Below, one piece after another: positions 1,362-13,965 of a stretch of 13,965 nucleotides of DNA. Position 1 is the stretch's first letter; each line of letters begins with the position of its first letter. The stretch is taken from assembly GCA_036261235.1 (NCBI GenBank), contig DATALE010000021.1, positions 1 to 13,965 of the forward strand. Reading direction: 5' to 3'. The position numbers and the translations under genes were made by a program. The notes under the pieces were generated by a model. It ran no database searches. It had not been told where the DNA came from and saw only the letters and a list, made by a program, of their open reading frames with translations. The stretch is from Ruminiclostridium sp. Its GTDB lineage: Bacteria; Bacillota; Clostridia; Oscillospirales; Ethanoligenentaceae.

Positions 1362-3365
1362 ATGCAGTATTTGATTTTCGGGGCAGCTGTAATAGCTGCG
1401 ATTTTTGTTATCTGGCTTTTGATTTTTAAAATTTTAGGTCTGCGTGTTATCAAATCAAACGAGGTTGCGGTTGTTGAAAAGTGGTGGAGCTTTAAAGGCT
1501 CTCTTAAAAATTCAATTATAGCGATAAACGGTGAAGCCGGTTATCTGCCCGACCTGCTCCGCGGCGGTATCCATTTTCGCTCGGCGCTTATGTATAAAAT
1601 ACATAAATATCCTCTTATAACGGTATCACAGGGTGAAATGGCTTATGTATTCGCACGCGACGGTATTCCGCTTAGCCCTGAACAAACGCTGGGCCGGATT
1701 GTACCGGAAGCAAATAATTTTCAGGATGTTGCGGGATTTTTAAAAAACGGCGGACAGCGCGGCCCACAGAGAGGTATATTGCGTGAAGGAACTTATGCTA
1801 TCAACCTTTCGCAGTTCATCGTTGTGACGTCTTCCGGAATAAAATCTATCGCGACAAGCGCGCGTGAACTCAATGAAATGCAAAGTCTTGAAAACATACT
1901 AAAAGCAAGAAATGCTTTCAGCCCGGTAGTTATTATGAGTACCGGATTTCAAAAGAATTCGGCAAATCAGGTGCAGGAAAGCACTGATGTTATCGGTATT
2001 GCAACAGTCCACGACGGCCCGTCGATACCGAAAGGTGAAATCATTGCTTCCGACATCGGGAATGACCATCAAAGCTTTCAGGACCCGGAAAAATTTCTTG
2101 CAAGCGGTGGCTGTCGCGGTAAGCAGCTTCAGGTTCTGACAGACGGTACATACTATATAAACAGGCTATTTGCTACCGTTGAATTAAGGCCAAAAACAAT
2201 CGTTCCGATCGGATATGTCGGTGTTGTTACTTCATTCTACGGAAAACAGGGACGCGATACGACAGGTGTCGAATACGGCCACGGACAGCTCGTGAACCAG
2301 GGCTGCAAGGGTGTACTTTCGGAGCCGCTCATGCCCGGCAAATATGCGTTTAACACTGACGCGGGCGCAATTTCACTTGTTCCGACGACTAATATTATTT
2401 TAAAATGGAAAAAAGACGACAGCAGCGGCCAAAAGTATGATGCTGATTTAGCAGAGGTTGACATAATCACGAAGGACGCATTTGAACCGGCTCTTCCTTT
2501 GTCGGTTGTCATGCACATTGATTATAAAGAAGCGCCGTGGGTAATCCAGAGGTTCGGTGATCTGACAAAGCTTGTCAACCAATCTCTTGACCCGCTTGTC
2601 AGCGCATATTTTAAAGATATCGCGCAGACAAAGACACTTATCGAACTAATTCAGGAGCGCAGTACAATCCGTGAAAAAGCGGTTGTCGAAATGAAAGAAA
2701 AATTTGCGGCATATAACCTCAACCTTGAAGAAGTGCTTATCGGAACCCCTGTAGCGCCCTCGGGTGACTCCAGAATCGAGAATATCCTGACTCAGCTGCG
2801 TGAACGCCAGATTGCGGAAGAACAAAAGGTAACTTATAATAAGCAGAAGGAAGCCGCCGAGACGGAAAGAGCGCTTAAAGAAGCGCAGGCTGTGGCACAG
2901 AACCAGACGTCGCTTACCCAGTCAAAGATTTCGATTGAAGTCGCCGCCAATGAAGGTGAAGCAATCGCCAAAAAAGCGGAGCAGGAAGCGAATAAGATTG
3001 TTTCCATTGCAAAGGCGGACGCCGAAAGGGTAAAACTTGAAGGTAACGCGGAAGCTGAAAAGGAAGCGGCGGTCGGAACAGCAAAAGCTACCGCAATTCA
3101 AAAGCAGGTTGAAGCCTATGGCGGATCGAGCTATCGACTGACACAGGAGATTGCCGATAAACTTTCCGAAGCCATAAAAGAGGCTAAGACGCCGGTCGTT
3201 CCGGGAACTGTAGTTAATTTCGGTGGAGGGCAGAGCGGGAGCAGCGATACAATAGTTGAAACACTTCTTAAGCTGATTACACTCTCAAAAGTCGGTGTTG
3301 ATATAGACACGGATACACAGCGCATGGCGGCTGCGGACAGCGTTTCACCGGAAAATAAGAAGTAA
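1362..3365 (+). CDS. floT: Flotillin-like SPFH/band-7 family membrane protein (FloT/YqiK-like), 667 aa.
   Basis: N-terminal transmembrane helix. The C-terminal Ala/Glu/Lys-rich coiled coil (AKADAERVKLEGNAEAEKEAAVGTAKATAIQKQVEAYGG...TPVVPGTVVNFGGG) closely parallels the flotillin C-terminus. RBS GGAGAG sits 5 nt before the ATG. It lies only 47 bp after the upstream gene. Confidence 0.7.
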   Translation: MQYLIFGAAVIAAIFVIWLLIFKILGLRVIKSNEVAVVEKWWSFKGSLKNSIIAINGEAGYLPDLLRGGIHFRSALMYKIHKYPLITVSQGEMAYVFARDGIPLSPEQTLGRIVPEANNFQDVAGFLKNGGQRGPQRGILREGTYAINLSQFIVVTSSGIKSIATSARELNEMQSLENILKARNAFSPVVIMSTGFQKNSANQVQESTDVIGIATVHDGPSIPKGEIIASDIGNDHQSFQDPEKFLASGGCRGKQLQVLTDGTYYINRLFATVELRPKTIVPIGYVGVVTSFYGKQGRDTTGVEYGHGQLVNQGCKGVLSEPLMPGKYAFNTDAGAISLVPTTNIILKWKKDDSSGQKYDADLAEVDIITKDAFEPALPLSVVMHIDYKEAPWVIQRFGDLTKLVNQSLDPLVSAYFKDIAQTKTLIELIQERSTIREKAVVEMKEKFAAYNLNLEEVLIGTPVAPSGDSRIENILTQLRERQIAEEQKVTYNKQKEAAETERALKEAQAVAQNQTSLTQSKISIEVAANEGEAIAKKAEQEANKIVSIAKADAERVKLEGNAEAEKEAAVGTAKATAIQKQVEAYGGSSYRLTQEIADKLSEAIKEAKTPVVPGTVVNFGGGQSGSSDTIVETLLKLITLSKVGVDIDTDTQRMAAADSVSPENKK

Positions 3366-5870: not shown

Positions 5871-5929
5871 GTATATCATATTATTTGAGCGAGTACAACT
5901 TTTTGAGCATTTTTACTATGGAGGAAAAT

Positions 5930-7054
5930 ATGCAGAAACGGATTGTCGAGAAGACCGGGGAATGGGTGTCGCTGCTTGGTTTTGGCTGCATGCGCTTTCC
6001 CAAAAAAGACGGCGTTAATGATATGGAACAGGTGCAGAAGATGGTTGATTACGCCAAAGTAAGCGGCGTAAACTATTTTGACACGGCCTATGTTTATGAT
6101 AATGGGGATTCAGAACGCTGTATCGGCAAAGCGCTGAGCAAATATCCTCGTGACAGCTACTTTTTGGCGACAAAGCTTCCGATATGGGCTGTCAAAGAAG
6201 AATCGGATATTGAAAGGATTCTTAATACATCGCTTGAAAGACTTCGAACCGGATACATTGATTTTTATTTGCTGCACTCAATGGATAAGGATCATTGGAA
6301 CGACGCAAAAAAATTCAATGCCATAGAAATATTGAAGAAATATCGCGAAGAAGGAAAAATTAAATATATCGGTTTCTCTTTTCATGACAGTCCGGAAATG
6401 TTCCGTGAAATCGTCGGTGCATTTGATTGGGATTTTGTCCAGATTCAGCTCAATTATCTTGACTGGAATTTGCAGAGGGCGGGCGAGATGTACCAGATAA
6501 TTGAGGAAAAGAACTTGTCCTGCATAGTGATGGAGCCGATCCGCGGCGGGGCACTCGCAAATCCGCCAAAAGAAGTCTCCGATATTATCAATAAAGCAGC
6601 CGTGGGTGTTTCACCGTCATCAATGGCGTTAAGATTTTGCGCTTCTCATCCGCGTGTCAAGGTGATTTTAAGCGGTATGTCCAGTTTTGAAAATGTAAAG
6701 GAAAACGTTGAAACGCTTGCAAATTTCACACCGCTCACAGAGGAAGAAAACAAGGCTCTTGATGAGGCCGCAATGTTTTTAATGTCACAGCCAAATATCA
6801 AATGCACAGACTGCCATTACTGCATGCCTTGCCCAAAGGGCGTAAATATTCCGTCATCGTTTACAGCTTATAACGACTACATGAAATTCCACAATGATGA
6901 GATGCTAAAAGGCCGCTATAATTTTGAACTTAAAGATGCAAGTCCGTATCAGTGTGTAAAATGCGGTATTTGCGTCAAAAAGTGCCCGCAGCACATAGAC
7001 ATTCCGAACAACCTTGACAAGGTCAGGGAAGTATTGTCACACGCGGGCATATGA
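5930..7054 (+). CDS. Aldo/keto reductase fused to a C-terminal 2x[4Fe-4S] ferredoxin domain (COG1453-type oxidoreductase).
   Basis: N-terminal AKR TIM-barrel motifs (GFGCMRFP, DTAYVYDNGDSE, hydrophobic-x-LHS). C-terminal CTDCHYCMPCP and CVKCGICVKKCP motifs. GGAGG at 5920-5924 sits 5 nt before the ATG at 5930, so the TTG-started extension in the ORF track (5885) is rejected. Confidence 0.8.
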   Translation: MQKRIVEKTGEWVSLLGFGCMRFPKKDGVNDMEQVQKMVDYAKVSGVNYFDTAYVYDNGDSERCIGKALSKYPRDSYFLATKLPIWAVKEESDIERILNTSLERLRTGYIDFYLLHSMDKDHWNDAKKFNAIEILKKYREEGKIKYIGFSFHDSPEMFREIVGAFDWDFVQIQLNYLDWNLQRAGEMYQIIEEKNLSCIVMEPIRGGALANPPKEVSDIINKAAVGVSPSSMALRFCASHPRVKVILSGMSSFENVKENVETLANFTPLTEEENKALDEAAMFLMSQPNIKCTDCHYCMPCPKGVNIPSSFTAYNDYMKFHNDEMLKGRYNFELKDASPYQCVKCGICVKKCPQHIDIPNNLDKVREVLSHAGI

Positions 7055-7351: not shown

Positions 7352-8017
7352 ATGAATATAAAAATTTCACCGTCGATTTTATCGGCTGATTTTGCATGTC
7401 TCGGAAGTGAGTGCAGGCGGGTTTGTGAAAGTGGTTCCGATTTAATACACATTGATGTTATGGACGGTAACTTTGTTCCGAACATAACGATCGGCGCACC
7501 GGTCGTCCGAAGCATTAAACCGTATTCGGAGATTCCGCTGGACGTGCACCTGATGATTGACAGGCCTGAGCGCTATATTGACGATTTCATTGCCGGGGGC
7601 GCCGGAATCGTTACGGTTCATGCCGAGGCAACAGACAAACTCGATTTCATCATCGGCAGGCTGCATGAAAAGGGAGTCAGGGCTTCTGTTTCAGTAAAGC
7701 CGGGAACAAGTGTCGAAACGGTTTATCCATATCTGAAAAATCTTGATATGGTGCTTATTATGACGGTTGAACCGGGTTTCGGCGGACAGAAACTGATTGA
7801 AAGCACTTTGCCGAAGATTTCTGCATTAAGGCAGAAATGCGCGGACGAGGGAGTCAATTTGGATATTGAGGTTGACGGAGGCATTACTCCTGAAAATATT
7901 GAGCATGTTTCAAAGGCGGGGGCAAATGTTTTTGTTGCGGGCAGCGCTGTTTTTAAGGCGCAGGACATGAGAAGCGCTGTTTCGGCGCTCAGGGACGGGG
8001 CAATTCGAGGTTTGTGA
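7352..8017 (+). CDS. rpe: Ribulose-phosphate 3-epimerase.
   Basis: 221 aa. Conserved Rpe motifs: SILSADF near the N-terminus, HIDVMDG, DVHLM, MTVEPGFGGQ and VDGGI. Confidence 0.9.
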   Translation: MNIKISPSILSADFACLGSECRRVCESGSDLIHIDVMDGNFVPNITIGAPVVRSIKPYSEIPLDVHLMIDRPERYIDDFIAGGAGIVTVHAEATDKLDFIIGRLHEKGVRASVSVKPGTSVETVYPYLKNLDMVLIMTVEPGFGGQKLIESTLPKISALRQKCADEGVNLDIEVDGGITPENIEHVSKAGANVFVAGSAVFKAQDMRSAVSALRDGAIRGL

Positions 8018-8063: not shown

Positions 8064-8660
8064 TCAACAATGAAAATAGCGAATAAAGTTTTCTATTGCG
8101 CGTGTTTTCAGGATGATAGTTCCATGTTCTTCCAGCATGGCCTCGTAAATTGCAGTGCAGCTTTCAGCACTGCCGTACTCCGATAGGGCGGCCAGCAGCG
8201 CGGCGAGCCTGTCGCGGTCAAGTCCAATCGATACCGGCAGAAATACGAGGTAATATTTTTCGTTGAAACAATATAGGGCGCTGTTTTGAATCGGCAAATC
8301 CGGGAAATCGGCAAAATGTCCGATTGCGTTGATTGCGTCTTCAAGATTATCGCAGCTGAATACATATCCGCTATGCTTCTTCGGATTTTTCGCGTTTATG
8401 TGCTTCTCCACTGCCTCACATTGTGATTTTGTAATATAGATTATACACCCGCTGTTTTTCCCCGGAAGCACTTCAAGAAGCAGTTTACATCGCTGGGTGC
8501 TGAAACCGTCTCTTTGAGCCTCTGAAAGTATTTCTTTCAGGAGCCTCTGTGTGCCGGGGCTTTCCTTACTTATTGAATAATAGTCAAGGTCATATTTGTC
8601 AAGGTCCTTAGGGTCGAGCTGAATGCGCAGCCTGTCTGGGCCTATTTTCTGGATATTCAT
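8064..8660 (-). CDS. mecA: MecA-family adaptor protein (Clp protease adaptor-like), ~199 aa.
   Basis: The N-terminus MNIQKIGPDRLRIQL...DL and the segment LLLEVLPGKNSGCIIYITKSQ parallel B. subtilis MecA (MEIERI...; PLWIQVQALDKGLEIIVTKAQ). GAGGAGG sits 6 nt upstream of the ATG at 8660. The 53-codon upstream extension in the ORF track (to 8819) lacks an RBS and is rejected. Confidence 0.55.
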   Translation of the reverse strand: MNIQKIGPDRLRIQLDPKDLDKYDLDYYSISKESPGTQRLLKEILSEAQRDGFSTQRCKLLLEVLPGKNSGCIIYITKSQCEAVEKHINAKNPKKHSGYVFSCDNLEDAINAIGHFADFPDLPIQNSALYCFNEKYYLVFLPVSIGLDRDRLAALLAALSEYGSAESCTAIYEAMLEEHGTIILKTRAIENFIRYFHC

Positions 8661-8798: not shown

Positions 8799-8930
8799 AT
8801 TTATACTGGAAGAAACCATAAGACCGGCAAAAATATATCCGCTATTACATTATAATGAATACAACGCCAAAAGTCACTGTGCGACTTTTGGAAGAACGTC
8901 GATATTTATGTATTATTGTCGCAGGAAAGC

Positions 8931-8989: not shown

Positions 8990-10288
8990 ATGATGCTTAG
9001 AAGGCCGAGAGGTGGGCTGTGGCTCGAACTAAAAAAAACGCCGGCAGCCGAAAGGCCGATCGTTGAACTTAAAGCTCCGACAAGGCTCTATCTTCCGCTG
9101 AATCAATGCGGTGGAAGTTTGCCGGAAGTGCTGGTTCAAGAAGGCAGCCGTGTTTTAATGGGACAGCCTATAGCTGACGCTGCGCACGGGGATTGCTGTG
9201 CTTTGCACTCTCCTGTTTCCGGAACAGTTGAAAGCATTAAAGAATATAATTACCCTATCGGCGGCAAATCCGCTATGATAGTAATTGAAAATGACGGAAG
9301 GGATATGCCTTATAAAAAGAGTGCTGCTCATCCGAAAAATACCGAGGAAGTAATATCCGCCATAAGAAATGCCGGTGTCGTATCATCAAAAGGCTATGAG
9401 CTGCCGCTTTGGACGAAAATTCAGAAGATTGCCGACAGGAACATCAAAACAGTAGTATTGAACGTAGTCGAAACAGAGCCTTATGTCTGCGCGTCACAAA
9501 AAGTTATGGACGAGATGCCGGACGAGGTCGCACAGGGGCTCGGCATAATTATGAAATGCGCCGGGGCAAAAAAAGCAATTTTGGCGGTCAGCGACGATAT
9601 TCCTGGAGAAATTGCCAAAGGTATGGCGGAAAGTGCTCATCTTGCAGGTGTTGAGCTGACCATTGCCCATATACCACAAAAATACCCGAATGGGAACGAA
9701 CAATTTCTCTGGCGTGAGCTTTTTGCGCACGAAATCGATGCTCAGATTAAAAAAGGCGGACAAGCGCCGGAAGTATATTTCACTTATCCTCAGGACTGTG
9801 TTAATATATGCCGCGCGGTTGAAGACGGAACGCCTCAGCTGACGCGTGTGATTACCGTTGCGGGAGACGCCGTTGAAAATCCGCAGAATCTTGAAGTGCG
9901 TATCGGAACCCGGATTCATGATATTCTGGATCATTGCGAGCTCAGTTTTGACCCTGACAGGGTGGTTCTCGGCAGCGCTATGCGAGGGGTGGCCATTCAA
10001 AGCCTTGACACGCCGGTTACCAAATCTGTGGGAGCGGTTCTTGCTCTTAAGGCCGCGAGCAGAAAAATCGCAAAGTCGTCGTGTATTAACTGCGGCAAAT
10101 GCGTCAGCGTGTGCCCACAGGGCCTCTTGCCGAACTATATAGCAATGCGGGCGGTAAAAGCTGACGTTGATGCTCTTAAAGATCTCCATATTGACGACTG
10201 TATCGAATGTGGCTTATGTGCATACATATGTCCGGGCAGAATGCCGATTGTCGAATTGATTAAAAAAATAAAAAAAGCCGCGATGTAG
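8990..10288 (+). CDS. rnfC: RnfC-like electron-transport subunit. The RnfC_N domain and the C-terminal 2x[4Fe-4S] are present, but the canonical GGAGFPT NADH/FMN-binding motif is absent.
   Basis: N-terminal PLNQCGGSLPEVLVQEGSRVLMGQPIADAAHGDCCALHSPVSGTV matches the RnfC N-domain. ETEPY and IPQKYPNGNE are conserved. C-terminal CINCGKCVSVCP and CIECGLCAYICP motifs are present. Where canonical RnfC has GMGGAGFPT this protein has SSKGYELPLWTK (9371-9418). The start at 8990 has GGAGG 6 nt upstream, so the 45-codon upstream extension in the ORF track is rejected. Confidence 0.7.
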   Translation: MMLRRPRGGLWLELKKTPAAERPIVELKAPTRLYLPLNQCGGSLPEVLVQEGSRVLMGQPIADAAHGDCCALHSPVSGTVESIKEYNYPIGGKSAMIVIENDGRDMPYKKSAAHPKNTEEVISAIRNAGVVSSKGYELPLWTKIQKIADRNIKTVVLNVVETEPYVCASQKVMDEMPDEVAQGLGIIMKCAGAKKAILAVSDDIPGEIAKGMAESAHLAGVELTIAHIPQKYPNGNEQFLWRELFAHEIDAQIKKGGQAPEVYFTYPQDCVNICRAVEDGTPQLTRVITVAGDAVENPQNLEVRIGTRIHDILDHCELSFDPDRVVLGSAMRGVAIQSLDTPVTKSVGAVLALKAASRKIAKSSCINCGKCVSVCPQGLLPNYIAMRAVKADVDALKDLHIDDCIECGLCAYICPGRMPIVELIKKIKKAAM

Positions 10289-10325
10289 GAAAGCCTGCTC
10301 CGGTGAATGATAGGGGAACTGTTTC

Positions 10326-11306
10326 TTGAGACTGTTTGCAGCGTCGTCGCCTCACATAAGGCATGGCGATGATATAAGAGTTACGATGGGCGATACGATT
10401 TTGCCGCTCCTGTTTCTGCTGTTTATGGCAGTATACTATACGGGCTGGAGGGCGCTTACACTGACCGCCGTTTCGGTAGTAAGCGCTGTCGTCTTTGAAT
10501 ACCTTTACAGGCGAATTCTCCGCAAAAGCCGCAGCATCGGCGATATTTCGGCGATTGTTACCGGAATGATTATTGCGTTCTGCATGCCGGTTTCCGCGCC
10601 AATTTGGTTTCCGATTGTCGGATCGTTCTTTGCCATTGTCGTAGTAAAGCAGCTTTTCGGAGGGCTTGGCGGCAATATTTTCAACCCGGCGGCAAGCGCA
10701 ATCTGCCTGCTGACCGTTACATGGCCCGGCGTTATGTCAACCTTTCCGCAGGCTTCTGAAAAATTTCCCCTGTTTGCGACTCCCGTTAATTTTGAAACCG
10801 GAGTGCCTGTGCTGACTTCACTTAAAAACGGGACTCTTCCCGACAACAAAATTTTTGAGATGCTGATAGGCTATACCCCGTCAAACCTCGGCACAGGCGC
10901 GATTTTAATTATAGCTATCGCGGCTTTGGTACTGCTTTACCGCAGAATAATAAGTTGGAAGGTTCCGCTTGCATTTCTCGGTACCGTGGCGCTCGCGGCT
11001 TTCATTTTTCCGCGGTGCCCGTCCGGGAGGATTGACTCGGTTTTGTTTGAGCTGACTTCCGGTTCAGTTGCTTTTGCGGCTGTTTTTATGGCAACAGATC
11101 CGGTGACAAGCCCGGTTACTACATTCGGGCGGTTGCTGTACGGATTCTTCCTGGGCGTCATTACTATTTTTATAAGATACTTCGGGATTTATCCGGAAGG
11201 CGCATTTTTTGCGATACTAATCATGAACCCCTTTGTATTGGCGTTAGACAGACTCGGCTGGACGTTCAAAATGAAAGGGGGCAGAATAACATATGAGCAA
11301 CAATAA
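10326..11306 (+). CDS. rnfD: RnfD/NqrB-family integral membrane subunit.
   Basis: N-terminal MRLFAASSPH parallels E. coli RsxD MVFRIASSPY. Also carries LFGGLGGNIFNPAASA and FMATDPVTSPVTTFGRLLYG. TTG start with AGGGGA upstream. Polytopic, 326 aa. Confidence 0.7.
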   Translation: MRLFAASSPHIRHGDDIRVTMGDTILPLLFLLFMAVYYTGWRALTLTAVSVVSAVVFEYLYRRILRKSRSIGDISAIVTGMIIAFCMPVSAPIWFPIVGSFFAIVVVKQLFGGLGGNIFNPAASAICLLTVTWPGVMSTFPQASEKFPLFATPVNFETGVPVLTSLKNGTLPDNKIFEMLIGYTPSNLGTGAILIIAIAALVLLYRRIISWKVPLAFLGTVALAAFIFPRCPSGRIDSVLFELTSGSVAFAAVFMATDPVTSPVTTFGRLLYGFFLGVITIFIRYFGIYPEGAFFAILIMNPFVLALDRLGWTFKMKGGRITYEQQ

Positions 11307-12213
11307 GAAAAAAAGCAATAAGGCTCCGAAATCGGCATCCACGGCGGCGGTTATGGAAAAAAAGAAACCTGCTGAAAGCGCGGTAAAAAAGGTTTCCGTA
11401 AAAAATACGGTAAAGCCTGAAACCCCGGCGAAAAAAATCATCACTCCGAAGAACAGCAAAAAGGGAATTGCGAATATTATTTCAGAAACAAAAAATAAGG
11501 CGGCCGCACCTTTAAAAGTGATAAAGAGCAAGGCTTCTCAGTTTTCAAAACCTGAAAAGGTCAAAAAGGAACCGAAGCCTGTTGAAGTTGAAGCAAAAAT
11601 TGATCAGGTCAGGAACATTAAAGAACGGTTATTTTCTCTTAATCCTGTATTCGTTAGAATTTTGGCGGTTGTCCCGCTGCTGGGCGCGGCTGTATCGCTT
11701 AAAAACGGCGTGATGCTTTCATGCGCAATGCTCCTTACACTGCTTCCGCTTAACCTGCTGCTTATTCCCATATACAGATTTGTTCCTGAACGATACCGTT
11801 TTGCGATATCATTTGCCGCGGCAGGCATTATAATAACACCTGTTTGCCTGCTGACAGATTATCTTGTTCCCACAATCACCTCAAGCTGCGGAATTTATTT
11901 GCCTCTTATTGCCGTATGCGCACTTTTGTTGACCGAAAAAAAACATTTCGGCAAAAAATATGTTGTGCCGAATACAGCGCGTGACGCACTGCTGAACGGC
12001 CTCGGTTTTGCTTTTGCCGCAGTAATTTTCTCAGCGCTGCGCGAGATAATTTCGAACGGCTCGTTTTATGACAGGGCTCTCCCTTATATATCGGGATTTA
12101 AGTTCAAATTTGCGGCAATGCCCGCCGGCGCGTTTATACTTCTCGCAGTTTTGGCGGCGCTTTTCAGAAAAATATCCAAATACAAAAAAACTGACGGGGA
12201 GGATATGGAATGA
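11293..12213 (+). CDS. rnfE: RnfE/NqrD-family membrane subunit with an unusual ~110-aa lysine-rich low-complexity N-terminal extension.
   Basis: Residues ~112-306 align with RnfE: NPVFVRILAVVPLLGA, LGIF-like GIYLPLIA.C and LLNGLGFAFA...LREIISNGSFY. Residues 1-110 are K/P/A/S-rich (KKKSNKAPK, KKPAESAVKK, KVKKEPKPVEVEAK) with no TM helix and no FMN-binding motif. The gene overlaps rnfD by 14 nt and rnfA by ATGA. Confidence 0.65.
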   Translation: MSNNKKKSNKAPKSASTAAVMEKKKPAESAVKKVSVKNTVKPETPAKKIITPKNSKKGIANIISETKNKAAAPLKVIKSKASQFSKPEKVKKEPKPVEVEAKIDQVRNIKERLFSLNPVFVRILAVVPLLGAAVSLKNGVMLSCAMLLTLLPLNLLLIPIYRFVPERYRFAISFAAAGIIITPVCLLTDYLVPTITSSCGIYLPLIAVCALLLTEKKHFGKKYVVPNTARDALLNGLGFAFAAVIFSALREIISNGSFYDRALPYISGFKFKFAAMPAGAFILLAVLAALFRKISKYKKTDGEDME

Positions 12214-12803
12214 ATTCATCACAGTTTGTTTCAATTGCCGTATCGGCAATTTTTGTCCAGAATCTCGTCATTGTTTATATGCTGTGTGAGGGAAGTTTCT
12301 TTAAAGAACTTAAAACTCCCACATCAGGGATTCTTTATGGAATTTCCGTGACCGCGGCGACAACTCTTACGTCTGTTTTGGCATGGATAGTAAATAGTTT
12401 TTTGCTGAGACCGAATTCTCTCGAATGGCTTGCGCCATTTGTGTTCATAATTATAATAGTAATGCTGGAAACAGCCGCCGAACTCATTTTTTCAAAAGTT
12501 GTTCCGGATAAGATTAACTCTCTTCACAAACTGTTTACGGCTTCGGCCTTCAACTGTGCAGTCTTGGGACATGCATTCCTGAATATTGAAGTAAATATGA
12601 GAGGCTTTTTCGGAGCCGCGTTTTATGGGTTCTGCGCAGGTATCGGTTATATCGCCGCAATAATTATAATAGCGAACGCTCTCGAGCGCATCAGGTTCAG
12701 CACGCCGCCGACGGTTTTCAAGGGGCTTCCTATTGCGCTCGTCACAACCGGAATTATTTCACTGGCATTTATGGGATTTGCGGGTATAACGATTTCATAC
12801 TGA
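12210..12803 (+). CDS. rnfA: RnfA/NqrE-family membrane subunit.
   Basis: 197 aa. Carries the FNCAVLG motif and a TM1 Cys (YMLCEG). GGAGG sits 7 nt upstream. Typical six-TM hydropathy. Confidence 0.75.
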   Translation: MNSSQFVSIAVSAIFVQNLVIVYMLCEGSFFKELKTPTSGILYGISVTAATTLTSVLAWIVNSFLLRPNSLEWLAPFVFIIIIVMLETAAELIFSKVVPDKINSLHKLFTASAFNCAVLGHAFLNIEVNMRGFFGAAFYGFCAGIGYIAAIIIIANALERIRFSTPPTVFKGLPIALVTTGIISLAFMGFAGITISY

Positions 12804-12952
12804 TTGCGATTTGAGCATATTATATATTGCGTATGTGCACTCACGAGCAAAAAATCACACAGGTATATGGCGTTTAGTTTGCGAATGATGTATTATACTA
12901 ATTCCAAATAAACTTAAGGTAAGAATTCGCGTAAAAATCGTAAATCAATATT

Positions 12953-12981
12953 TTGACGCAAATTCGTTGGAGACTTTTAAT
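12953..12981 (+). promoter_or_regulatory. Candidate sigma-A promoter TTGACG-N17-TTTAAT for the downstream DUF4015 gene.
   Basis: Hexamers and spacing read directly. No clear terminator follows rnfA, so read-through is also possible. Confidence 0.35.
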
Positions 12982-13068
12982 TTGGAATAAGTATTAAACA
13001 TTATTCTGTTAATAGAATATTTAATAAGCAAATTAAAAAAAGAGGACATTTTTCGGAGGATAGCATCG

Positions 13069-13965
13069 ATGCGAAGAATAAAAAGAGGAAACTACAGCGG
13101 TATTTATTCGTCAAGGCGCAGAAGGCGCAGTTCAAGTGCGCTTAAAACGGTAATCTTTATTATTCTAGCCGCGGCGGTTGTGTTCGTCGGCTACAGCATT
13201 TCTGACCCGCTCATAAGGCTTTTCTCCGGAAACCTGAAACCGACCGCTGCGTCGCATATTTCAAGTTCAAAATCAACGGCTTCATCTTCAAAGAAAGCCT
13301 CGTCTTCAAAGGCTGGCTCATCTTCAAAATTAAAGGCAGCAGCTGTTCGCGGCGTTTATCTGCCAAAAAGCTATCTGTCAAACACCGCTGAACTTAACAG
13401 CTTTATTTCACAGGCAAAAAGCGCCGGTATAAATCTTGCCGTAATTGACCTAAAAGCGGAAGACGGCGTTGTAAACTATGCTTCAAAAACGGACAGCGCG
13501 AAAGAGGCCATGGCACAAGGTGCGCCTGATGCGTCGGCGGCAGCAAAAGCTTTATCTGACGCCGGAATTACCCCCGCCGCCAGAATTTGTGCGTTTCAGG
13601 ATCCTGTTGCCCCTTCGGTTTTGCGCGGAGCAGGTGTTCTTTATTCACAAAATCATAGTATGAACTGGCTTGACCCGTCAGGAAACAGATGGCTTAATCC
13701 GAATTCACAACAGGCACAGCAATATATTACAAGCCTTGCGACAGAGGCCGTATCTTTGGGATATAAACAGATATTTATTGATTCTCTTACTTTCCCGACA
13801 AAAGGGAATCCAGACAGTCAGGGTTATTATGGAGACAATATGACTTCAAAAGAACAAGTCATTTCGGATTATGTTAAGACGCTAAAACAGCAGGTCAACG
13901 CCGCGGGCGGAAAACTGACTGTTATGGCCGCCGGAGCAGCGGCGGTCGGTCAGGCAAACGAGAAT
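13069..13965 (+). CDS. Membrane-anchored putative glycoside hydrolase of the DUF4015 / GHL10 (YngK-like) family. The 5' part only; it runs off the window end.
   Basis: GGAGG 9 nt upstream of the ATG. Basic N-terminus plus one TM helix, then a Ser/Lys-rich linker (SSSKSTASSSKKASSSKAGSSSK). The block VRGVYLP...AGINLAVIDLKAEDGVVNY...ICAFQDP...WLDP...GYKQIFIDSLTFP parallels DUF4015 TIM-barrel proteins. The ORF is open to the last base. Confidence 0.6.
   Translation, partial: MRRIKRGNYSGIYSSRRRRRSSSALKTVIFIILAAAVVFVGYSISDPLIRLFSGNLKPTAASHISSSKSTASSSKKASSSKAGSSSKLKAAAVRGVYLPKSYLSNTAELNSFISQAKSAGINLAVIDLKAEDGVVNYASKTDSAKEAMAQGAPDASAAAKALSDAGITPAARICAFQDPVAPSVLRGAGVLYSQNHSMNWLDPSGNRWLNPNSQQAQQYITSLATEAVSLGYKQIFIDSLTFPTKGNPDSQGYYGDNMTSKEQVISDYVKTLKQQVNAAGGKLTVMAAGAAAVGQANEN

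Follow-up and report, generated by a model that had tools for sequence, protein, structure and literature searches.

A conserved Rnf-like operon without rnfG and rnfB has lost canonical cofactor sites and is probably kept for a different role

Introduction

Rnf and Nqr complexes are defined by a transmembrane electron loop. Here, we ask whether a clostridial operon that carries the database name of a ferredoxin:NAD+ oxidoreductase, and that comprises only C-, D-, E- and A-type subunit genes, can still encode such a complex. The operon (positions 8990-12803) lies in a stretch of 13,965 nucleotides of Ruminiclostridium sp. DNA (contig DATALE010000021.1), which is called the window below. Its genes for RnfC', RnfD', RnfE' and RnfA' are tightly packed in the order C'-D'-E'-A'. 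A preliminary description, made from the letters of the window, had proposed an Rnf-derived membrane module without G and B subunits.

Results

The operon encodes four Rnf-type proteins

The window contains the following features around and within C'D'E'A':

8064-8660, minus strand: mecA (ClpC adaptor), divergent from rnfC'; conserved upstream neighbour
8849-8857, plus strand: -10-like box CATTATAAT in the mecA-rnfC' intergenic region; putative promoter
8867-8891, plus strand: hairpin with TGTGC in the same intergenic region, 3' of the -10-like box; putative leader
8990-10288, plus strand: RnfC', 432 aa, ATG start
10326-11306, plus strand: RnfD', 326 aa, TTG start
11293-12213, plus strand: RnfE', whole gene, overlapping D' by 14 nt
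11293-11607, plus strand: N-terminal low-complexity extension of RnfE', ~105 aa, rich in Lys, Ala and Pro
11608-12213, plus strand: RnfE' core with the 6-TM Rnf-Nqr fold, assigned from profile matches and alignments
12210-12803, plus strand: RnfA', 197 aa, overlapping E' by 4 nt
12804-13068, no strand: AT-rich spacer of 265 bp at the position where rnfB would lie
13069-13965, plus strand: 5' part of a DUF4015 gene for a membrane-anchored GH-like TIM-barrel protein; conserved downstream neighbour

The RnfC' reading frame opens at 8855, and its start at the ATG at 8990 is backed by homologues and by a GGAGG ribosome-binding site. The pattern of -10-like box and TGTGC hairpin is present in seven lineages. 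All four proteins match Pfam families: RnfC' matches RnfC_N, Complex1_51K, SLBB and Fer4, and both RnfE' and RnfA' match Rnf-Nqr. Against the NCBIfam models for Rnf subunits (TIGR01945/6/8/3), RnfC' (TIGR01945, 317 bits; cutoff 246) and RnfD' (TIGR01946, 239 bits; cutoff 207) score above the cutoffs, and RnfE' (88 bits; cutoff 213) and RnfA' (113 bits; cutoff 229) score far below them. Searches with phmmer linked the four proteins to Rnf proteins with E-values of 3e-68 (C), 1.5e-61 (D), 4e-18 (E) and 9e-25 (A). The reading frames and the Pfam matches thus confirm the tightly linked and overlapping C-, D-, E- and A-type genes of the preliminary description.

rnfG and rnfB are missing from the locus

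No ORF for rnfG or rnfB is present in the window, and neither gene was found within 7-10 kb in 13 related loci. In a tblastn search of these 13 loci with 10 RnfG and 10 RnfB queries, the best E-value for RnfG was 0.059 and the RnfB matches were generic Fer4 motifs only; the positive control returned RnfG/RnfB in 74 of 80 canonical loci. The spacer downstream of RnfA' contained no RnfB remnant and no clear terminator. The absence of both genes from the operon, as described earlier, therefore stands. The accompanying remark that nothing lies between D and E was wrong in detail. In canonical loci, the gap between D and E measures 546-934 bp and contains rnfG; in C'D'E'A' this slot is filled by the translated RnfE' extension of ~100 aa, in which tblastn found no similarity to RnfG. 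Across lineages the extension varies in length (30-170 aa) and in composition, and it holds the in-frame indels and most within-species substitutions. RnfE' evolves fast (33-57% identity).

Canonical cofactor sites are lost in all four subunits

Motifs were checked by alignment to the solved Rnf structures 7ZC6, 9ERI and 8AHX. In RnfC', the position of the FMN/NADH glycine loop now reads SSKGYELPLWTK (nt 9383-9418), and the canonical G(M/L)GGA(T/I)FPT has become SSKGYELPLWT. None of the clade's 58 protein clusters retains the loop, which is intact in the canonical controls. Both [4Fe-4S] motifs of the CxxCxxCxxxCP type are in place (Cys365/368/371/375 and Cys404/407/410/414; nt 10082-10231), with all eight cysteines kept in the window and in 56 of the 58 clusters. 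Conservation within RnfC' is highest in the ferredoxin (Fd) domain, and a new PLW motif is strongly conserved in the clade. An AF2 model of RnfC' (pLDDT 90.9) gave Foldseek TM-scores of 0.88-0.90 to RnfC versus 0.66 to NqrA; judging from this model, RnfC' keeps the RnfC fold. PrdC was rejected as an identity for RnfC', as TIGR04481 scored 99 bits (cutoff 490) and no prd genes lie nearby.

Where Rnf has the covalent-FMN motif, the homologous stretch of RnfD' is KFPLFATPV (nt 10761-10787) as compared to D-G-V-T-T-A-T-P-L, with T152 corresponding to Thr153 of Clostridium tetanomorphum (Ct) RnfD. Using the ApbE motif definition D-x-x-[ST]-G-A-[ST] (PMC12052999), residues -6 (D), -3 (S/T) and -2 (G) are lost in all eight lineages, and the acceptor Thr is present (FATP) in six of them and missing in two. 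Because this Thr persists in six lineages and flavinylation partly withstands single changes to the ApbE motif (PMC12052999), some residual flavinylation of RnfD' may occur. Among the Ct RnfD residues with described roles (PMC9588780), Asn124 and Asp248, the latter implicated in riboflavin binding, are kept in RnfD'; Glu185 is replaced by Thr and Asn90 by Cys.

In RnfE', GMCPTL has become AVVPLL, so that Val127 (nt 11671-11673) occupies the Cys1 position; the canonical Cys2 position is Ala210, with a cysteine one residue upstream at 209. RnfA' has Gly28 at the canonical Cys1 position, with a cysteine two residues upstream, and keeps Cys2 (FNCAVLG; Cys116, nt 12555-12557). Among the eight lineages, the canonical columns hold cysteine in three (E Cys1), none (E Cys2), none (A Cys1) and all eight (A Cys2). 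As read from the alignments, the four-cysteine [2Fe-2S] site of RnfA/RnfE is lost, with one of the four cysteines invariant. The shifted cysteines of A' and E' in the window, or FMN held without the glycine loop, may allow non-canonical cofactor binding. The lost cofactor-site residues have elsewhere been called invariant or strictly conserved (PMC9588780; PMC12174285). Residues of Acetobacterium woodii (Aw) Rnf for RnfB contact or Na+ binding are replaced as well (functional residues from PMC11889175): the RnfB-contact residues R154 and E158 of Aw RnfA are L158 and R162 in RnfA', and E115 of Aw RnfE is Lys217 in RnfE', where Aw RnfE R67 is kept as R169.

Alignment and clade-wide comparison (58 of 58 clusters for the loop) thus agree with the preliminary description that the canonical FMN/NADH loop of RnfC' is gone, that both C-x2-C-x2-C-x3-C-P motifs are intact, that RnfD' lacks a canonical flavinylation motif (K-F-P-L-F-A-T at the homologous site) and that RnfE' lacks its TM1 cysteine. 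Its statement that the module retains Fe-S centres holds for the two [4Fe-4S] clusters of RnfC' and fails for the intramembrane [2Fe-2S] cluster of A/E.

C'D'E'A' is conserved under purifying selection

C'D'E'A' is carried by a small set of Clostridia that degrade cellulose in guts and digesters; they form a family-level clade.

Eight independent lineages share the gene block rpe, mecA, C'D'E'A', DUF4015, among them [Clostridium] cellulosi DG5, whose complete genome carries it. Conservation of the CDEA-only arrangement in relatives, which the preliminary description had proposed to check, is thereby confirmed. The C'D'E'A' ORFs are intact in the eight lineages, which span 44-72% RnfC' identity, and dN/dS of the genes ranges from 0.05 to 0.29, versus 0.07-0.20 for the housekeeping gene rpe. 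Between the window and C. cellulosi, identity is 71% for C, 84% for D and 79% for A, with 77% for rpe and 81% for nadB; RnfD' is better conserved than rpe, nadB and nadC. One copy (L007) appears broken; since efp is broken there too, we attribute its frameshifts to assembly errors. Taken together, the four genes are under purifying selection across the family-level clade.

The operon most likely descends from a canonical rnf locus

DUF4015 lies downstream of C'D'E'A' in every lineage and also downstream of canonical rnfCDGEAB in five loci of related Clostridia (L009, L015, L021, L027 and L043), so it is not the unrelated neighbour for which it had been taken. Moreover, mecA lies upstream of canonical rnfC in L034. 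As the same genes flank some canonical rnf operons, C'D'E'A' is most likely an in-situ descendant of a normal Rnf operon and not a paralogue.

Two loci, L011 (an Oscillospiraceae MAG) and L101 (GCA_045536965.1), represent intermediate forms with partial loss. In both, the RnfC FMN loop is degenerate, rnfB is absent and rnfG is kept. L011, which has DUF4015 downstream, retains a single one of the four A/E cysteines and has lost the SGAT motif of RnfG; in L101 no A/E cysteine is missing and the D..SGAT motif of RnfG is intact. In the searched literature, we found no published description of operons of either type.

Discussion

A different role is the probable reading

Our analysis bears out an Rnf-derived membrane module without G and B. 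We consider C'D'E'A' to be, probably, a descendant of clostridial rnfCDGEAB that lost its cofactor sites together with rnfG and rnfB and was kept for a different role. Loss of rnfG/rnfB, the FMN/NADH site, the flavinylation motif and the [2Fe-2S] site would break the transmembrane electron loop, so that C'D'E'A' would not be a Na+/H+-pumping ferredoxin:NAD+ oxidoreductase; despite the database name, it is most likely not a ferredoxin:NAD+ oxidoreductase. Purifying selection on all four genes across the clade in turn argues for a different role. We propose that an ancestral clostridial rnfCDGEAB lost rnfG and rnfB in place, and that the remaining subunits also lost the RnfC FMN/NADH site, the RnfD flavinylation motif and the RnfA/RnfE [2Fe-2S] site. 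The surviving active part could be the RnfC-type ferredoxin domain with its two [4Fe-4S] clusters. It would dock on RnfD', in which the Asp equivalent to the riboflavin- and Na+-binding residue of C. tetanomorphum RnfD is kept; we hold this with low confidence. With equally low confidence, this part might act as a short cytoplasm-to-membrane electron stub, passing electrons from Fe-S via riboflavin to some further acceptor, or it might sense redox state while capping a channel-like D'/A'/E' core. Our best guess is thus a residual Fe-S module, perhaps with riboflavin, on a channel-like membrane core.

Tentatively, one might go further and suppose that the Rnf/Nqr core (D plus the inverted A/E pair) was kept and selected without a transmembrane electron chain, with a remnant of RnfC as its Fe-S cap for redox sensing. 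If true, C'D'E'A' would be the first known redox-uncoupled member of the Rnf/Nqr pump family, the stepwise series CDGEAB to C*DGEA to C'D'E'A' would be traceable in living Oscillospiraceae with C'D'E'A' at its end, and the core might be a cation channel, a transporter or a membrane scaffold.

It seems unlikely that the operon encodes a one-way electron exporter, in which the two [4Fe-4S] clusters in C' would take electrons from ferredoxin or flavodoxin and hand them, via a flavin bound non-covalently in D', to an acceptor within the membrane or beyond the cytoplasm that may be connected with the DUF4015 protein. The conservation of the Fd domain within C', the D' residue equivalent to Ct RnfD Asp248 and the one-way systems proposed among partial NQR/RNF-like clusters (PMC8238504) are consistent with such a path. 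However, no extracytoplasmic redox partner is encoded (no FMN_bind domain, no cytochrome), and the constant adjacency of DUF4015, a TIM barrel of glycosidase type for which no redox role is known, reflects ancestral synteny, as the gene follows canonical operons too.

A decaying relic, whose genes are becoming functionless pseudogenes, is improbable. The loss of two genes and several cofactor sites, the fast evolution of E' and the differing loss patterns among related lineages (L011) would fit decay, but the ORFs are intact over the whole range of RnfC' identity, dN/dS resembles that of rpe, D' is conserved above rpe, nadB and nadC, the Fd domain and the PLW motif are strongly conserved, and the sole seemingly broken copy is explained by assembly errors.

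A working Rnf subcomplex that takes RnfG and RnfB (and ApbE) from elsewhere and remains a ferredoxin:NAD+ oxidoreductase, borrowing of G and B having been suggested earlier, is hardly credible. In its favour, C' and D' pass the rnfC and rnfD cutoffs, and most lineages retain the Thr at the D' site. All four proteins, however, have themselves lost the sites through which such partners would act: the NADH/FMN loop is gone from C' in every member and the NAD+ site with it; of the four [2Fe-2S] ligands, the link from RnfB to RnfG, three are not conserved; and the RnfA residues contacting the B8 cluster of RnfB are replaced. Its positional orthology with canonical rnf operons further argues for C'D'E'A' being the organism's only rnf locus.

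Comparison with known systems

All four proteins of C'D'E'A' are clearly homologous to those of Rnf (RnfCDGEAB; C. tetanomorphum 7ZC6, A. woodii 9ERI, Azotobacter vinelandii 8AHX), and the operon shares the clostridial gene order C-D-(G)-E-A-(B), the RnfC fold and both [4Fe-4S] motifs. In contrast to Rnf, whose six core subunits include the periplasmic FMN subunit RnfG and the polyferredoxin RnfB, C'D'E'A' has neither; it further differs in the lost FMN/NADH loop of RnfC, the lost RnfD motif, the loss of three of the four RnfA/E cluster cysteines and the disordered N-terminal extension of E'.

Partial NQR/RNF-like clusters (Meheust et al. 2021, PMC8238504) are incomplete Rnf/Nqr-derived sets for which part of the electron path has been proposed. 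They occur mostly in Actinobacteria and CPR and comprise an RnfD/NqrB-NqrF fusion beside ApbE or FMN-binding genes, whereas C'D'E'A' has no flavinylation partner and no NqrF domain and keeps homologues of C, E and A. We therefore rejected this identity: D' is a stand-alone 326-aa PF03116 protein, and PF00175, PF04205 and ApbE were found neither in the window nor in the related loci.

An identity as Na+-NQR was rejected as well, given the absence of NqrF and NqrC, NCBIfam Nqr scores of 32-144 bits versus cutoffs of 235-819, and the TM-score of 0.66 to NqrA. NqrA of Na+-NQR has no redox cofactors, and a structural role has been ascribed to it (PMC12174285); as such, it sets a precedent for an RnfC homologue remaining part of the complex once its redox cofactors are gone. 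Na+-NQR keeps FMN and riboflavin in NqrB, FMN in NqrC and the [2Fe-2S] cluster of NqrD/E, and it gained NqrF. C'D'E'A' shows the reverse pattern, having lost the cofactor sites in the membrane and kept the Fe-S clusters of RnfC.

A four-gene Rnf-like operon without rnfG and rnfB

The rnf' genes lie on the forward strand, and D', E' and A' overlap one another:

7352-8017, rpe, upstream of the rnf' genes
8064-8660, mecA, divergent, upstream of RnfC'
8990-10288, + strand, RnfC'
10326-11306, + strand, RnfD', TTG start
11293-12213, + strand, RnfE', 14-nt overlap with D'
12210-12803, + strand, RnfA', 4-nt overlap with E'
13069 to beyond the window end, membrane-anchored DUF4015 gene, after an AT-rich spacer of 265 bp

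By Pfam, C' is composed of RnfC_N, Complex1_51K, SLBB and Fer4 domains, D' belongs to NQR2_RnfD_RnfE, and E' and A' each belong to Rnf-Nqr. The NCBIfam subfamily models for rnfC and rnfD are passed by C' (317 bits, cutoff 246) and D' (239 bits, cutoff 207), respectively; E' (88 bits, cutoff 213) and A' (113, cutoff 229) score far below theirs. An identity of C' as PrdC or NqrA was ruled out by HMM scores. Elsewhere, the window encodes a lipoprotein-like ORF of 341 aa without a Pfam family (289-1314), which precedes the gene of an SPFH/Band-7 (flotillin-like) protein of 667 aa, whose long C-terminal tail is coiled or rich in Ala/Glu/Lys (1362-3365). In a further protein (5885-7054), an aldo/keto reductase carries a ferredoxin domain of the 2x[4Fe-4S] type fused to its C-terminus; this protein recurs near the rnf' block in two related loci (L005, L099).

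No FMN_bind (RnfG) gene and no RnfB-type gene is present in the window. We employed ten canonical RnfG and ten RnfB proteins as tblastn queries against 13 loci of the loop-less RnfC' clade (each with at most 10 kb of flanking sequence, three being short contigs). RnfG gave no match in these loci (best E = 0.059), and the matches of RnfB were confined to generic ferredoxin motifs. As a positive control, the same queries detected RnfG in 74/80 canonical loci among the matches listed, most of the six RnfG-negative loci being contigs cut short. These control loci came from a scan of genome contigs with the RnfC' alignment, in which the matches listed were all canonical RnfC loci of 29-36% identity. 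The ORFs of the window and these searches thus bear out the preliminary description of a CDEA operon lacking rnfG and rnfB.

That description had also placed nothing between D and E, where in fact a translated N-terminal extension of E' fills the gap. In canonical loci, the end of RnfD and the RnfE core are separated by 546-934 bp containing rnfG, with L045, L035 and L083 as the only exceptions; in the clade the distance is 190-485 bp, taken up by the extension. This low-complexity segment comprises 30-170 aa and is rich in Lys in the window, with acidic or Ser-rich versions elsewhere in the clade. Since strains differ in it by in-frame indels of 3 and 5 codons and no internal start codon is found near the core, we conclude that it is translated. 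Nearly all within-species amino-acid changes fall in the extension, which is thus under relaxed constraint. An rnfG remnant was ruled out, as no similarity to 10 RnfG sequences was found; the extension is not conserved. Likewise, tblastn found no rnfB remnant in the 265-bp spacer.

Cofactor and functional sites are largely lost

To map functional residues, we aligned the four proteins by phmmer to the complexes of C. tetanomorphum (7ZC6), A. woodii (9ERI) and A. vinelandii (8AHX), and the mapped residue numbers were verified against the published numbering.

Cofactor and functional sites in the window (Ct, C. tetanomorphum numbering; Aw, A. woodii numbering)
RnfC', NuoF-type loop G(M/L)GGA(T/I)FPT: reads SSKGYELPLWT, lost
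RnfC', two CxxCxxCxxxCP motifs: both intact
RnfD', covalent-FMN site, Ct Thr153 in D-G-V-T-T-A-T: T152 in K-F-P-L-F-A-T, Thr kept
RnfD', Ct Asn124 and Ct Asp248: kept
RnfD', Ct Glu185: Thr
RnfD', Ct Asn90: Cys
RnfE', [2Fe-2S] ligand Cys1: Val127
RnfE', [2Fe-2S] ligand Cys2: Ala210, with a Cys one residue upstream
RnfE', Aw E115: Lys
RnfA', [2Fe-2S] ligand Cys1: Gly28, with a Cys two residues upstream
RnfA', [2Fe-2S] ligand Cys2: kept, Cys116
RnfA', Aw R154 and E158, contacting the RnfB B8 cluster: Leu and Arg
RnfA', Aw T110 and T111, Na+-site residues: Ala and Phe

The altered FMN site of the C-type subunit, the non-canonical flavinylation motif of RnfD and the missing TM1 cysteine of the E-type subunit had all been noted from the sequence, and the alignments agree on each. 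Compared with the ApbE motif D-x-x-[ST]-G-A-[ST] (PMC12052999), Asp, Ser/Thr and the small residue are missing from the RnfD' site. As the threonine is kept in most lineages of the clade and ApbE tolerates single motif substitutions (PMC12052999), residual flavinylation of D' is formally possible. The four A/E cysteines were termed invariant by Vitt et al. (PMC9588780). In A. woodii, from which the roles of the Aw residues were taken, the RnfE substitution E115K abolishes autotrophic growth (PMC11889175).

A confident AlphaFold2 model of C' (pLDDT 90.9) superposes on RnfC chains with a TM-score of 0.88-0.90 vs only 0.66 for NqrA. Judging from this model, C' adopts the RnfC fold minus its flavin site.

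The reduced operon is conserved and under purifying selection

A search with C' in 5.8 billion protein clusters returned a sharply separated clade of 58 clusters (43-100% identity, at least 282 bits), canonical RnfC proteins reaching at most 36% identity. The glycine loop is absent in 58/58, its place being taken by a stretch of variable sequence and, after it, a conserved P-L-W-x-(K/R)-L; all eight Fe-S cysteines are present in 56/58. The ferredoxin domain is the best conserved part of RnfC' (mean majority-residue frequency per alignment column of 0.82, vs 0.55 for the former flavin domain).

Genomic context was available for eight independent lineages, comprising the window, L005, L006, L088, L098, L099, L100 and L090, the last being [Clostridium] cellulosi DG5, whose complete genome of 2.23 Mb (LM995447.1) carries the operon at about 2.010-2.031 Mb (CCDG5_1891). 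All eight share the CDEA-only arrangement, answering the question whether relatives do, in the order rpe, divergent mecA (absent from L005 only), C'-D'-E'-A' and DUF4015; genes outside this block vary from lineage to lineage. In L098 alone, gene calling adds an ORF of 57 aa between RnfC' and RnfD' (9312-9485). A search of metagenome contigs with the RnfA' alignment yielded seven loci, one of them canonical (L095).

The acceptor threonine of D' is kept in 6/8 lineages, with LQNP in L098 and FGSQ in L100. Cysteine occupies the E' Cys1 column in 3/8, the E' Cys2 and A' Cys1 columns in 0/8 each and the A' Cys2 column in 8/8. The suggestion that Fe-S centers are retained therefore holds for the two motifs of C' but not for the A/E [2Fe-2S] site, whose four cysteines are complete in 0/8 lineages.

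dN/dS of the rnf' genes and rpe
Window vs C. cellulosi: C' 0.11, D' 0.05, E' 0.13, A' not computable (dS saturated), rpe 0.07
L088 vs L005: C' 0.24, D' 0.19, E' 0.29, A' 0.14, rpe 0.20
Within C. cellulosi: C' 0.12, D' 0.11, E' 0.21, A' 0.04, rpe 0.15

D' is 84% identical to its C. cellulosi counterpart, exceeding nadB and nadC (both 81%) and rpe (77%). Judged by these substitution patterns, the rnf' genes are functional. One contig, L007 (JGI 3300053040), carries frameshifts in efp and in all rnf' genes relative to the near-identical L088. Pseudogenisation in L007 (protein cluster P0058) was ruled out, as efp is fragmented on the same contig and L088 is intact; the breaks are thus assembly indels rather than decay. 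Proteins from this indel-rich assembly (P0058) are accordingly unreliable.

The mecA-rnfC' intergenic regions of the lineages (window 8849-8891, L006, L088, L098, L099, L100, L090) have in common a -10-like box, A(C/T)(A/T)TTATAAT, followed after 15-25 nt by (A/C)(A/T)TGTGC. The TGTGC element lies within a hairpin with an 11-bp stem (CCAAAAGTCACTGTGCGACTTTTGG) in the window and C. cellulosi, and in the other lineages it continues into the RBS as ATGTGCAAGAGGTGAA. Box and element may represent a conserved promoter plus an operator or leader. Nothing convincing as a Rex-box was found upstream of the operon.

Origin of the operon and related variants

The downstream DUF4015 gene had been regarded as unrelated. 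In five related Clostridia loci (L009, L015, L021, L027, L043), DUF4015 likewise directly follows a complete rnfCDGEAB operon, and a mecA homolog is located divergently upstream of canonical rnfC in L034. The five loci are of Oscillospirales-type Clostridia and make Rnf-DUF4015 a recurrent synteny. As the same genes flank canonical operons, the window operon occupies the chromosomal slot of a normal Rnf operon, and in-situ reduction of CDGEAB to C'D'E'A' would be the simplest reading. For the same reason, we downgraded a functional coupling to DUF4015 or mecA: their adjacency is inherited synteny and no evidence of a functional link.

Two further operons lacking rnfB look, from their gene content and motifs, like intermediate or parallel states:

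L011, 6527-11922, Oscillospiraceae MAG RGIG7313, degenerate rnfC*D*G*E*A* followed by DUF4015
L101, 8001-12758, GCA_045536965.1, JAZSON010000029.1, non-canonical Rnf operon with RnfD present

In L011, the C subunit reads GLGGSAAPLS where the FMN loop would be, RnfG is present with its flavinylation motif SGAT changed to GSDI, E lacks Cys2 and A lacks both cluster cysteines, a loss pattern unlike that of the window clade. In L101, RnfC has no FMN loop (NAGTTPMPIHEK); the D..SGAT motif of RnfG is intact and all four RnfE/RnfA cysteines are kept. A lipoprotein-like ORF of 204 aa without a Pfam match takes the rnfB position, and gpr, a sigma factor gene and spoVG flank the operon.

We also searched 1.84 billion representatives with an HMM of the clade. 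Among the best 150 RnfC-family clusters (50% identity; P0147-P0293 numbering), the FMN glycine loop is lost in 25 and partial in 10 more, a fraction biased upward because the profile was built from loop-less sequences. Nine of ten loop-deficient clusters checked pass the NCBIfam rnfC model and none the PrdC model. One cluster, P0159 (775 aa), is an RnfC-RnfD fusion. Complete or partial loop loss in 25 + 10 of these 150 suggests that non-canonical Rnf-like complexes are under-recognised.

Discussion

C'D'E'A' is an Rnf derivative of four subunits that is largely stripped of its cofactor sites, and it is conserved in Oscillospiraceae of the [Clostridium] cellulosi lineage. In our literature searches on CDEA-only Rnf operons, DUF4015 and Rnf in Ethanoligenens or C. 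cellulosi, the variant is undescribed, and the searched literature yielded no expression or biochemical data on the rnf' operon. Carere et al. (2012) list no rnf-type NFO for E. harbinense, and recent structural reviews call the Rnf/Nqr core cofactors strictly conserved. In NCBI and IMG, the rnf' genes carry the name 'RnfABCDGE type electron transport complex subunit C/D' or 'Na+-translocating ferredoxin:NAD+ oxidoreductase'; they are thus currently mis-annotated as a standard Rnf complex. Metabolic reconstructions would thereby wrongly credit Rnf-based energy conservation to [Clostridium] cellulosi-type cellulolytic hydrogen producers and to many digester and gut MAGs. That most cofactors are lost yet purifying selection persists implies that the Rnf/Nqr scaffold is useful beyond redox-driven ion pumping. 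C'D'E'A' is also a naturally minimal system in which the roles of RnfD and RnfA/E alone could be addressed.

Electrons traverse the membrane twice in both Rnf and Nqr; in Rnf they pass from RnfB via the A/E [2Fe-2S] cluster, RnfG FMN, RnfD FMN and RnfD riboflavin to the RnfC [4Fe-4S] clusters, RnfC FMN and NAD+ (PMC12174285). C'D'E'A' lacks the entry module, the intramembrane cluster sites, both covalent-flavin sites and the NAD+ site. The complex is left with the ferredoxin domain of C', with its two clusters, beside D', and D' retains the Asp that has been linked to riboflavin and Na+ binding in RnfD of C. tetanomorphum. From these sites we predict with high confidence that C'D'E'A' is neither a ferredoxin:NAD+ oxidoreductase nor a redox-driven pump, and that borrowed G and B subunits would restore neither activity. 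The complex might form a short Fe-S-to-flavin stub passing electrons to some membrane acceptor, or C' might act as an Fe-S redox or oxygen sensor capping a channel-like core. By analogy, its role may also be structural, as proposed for NqrA, which has no cofactors.
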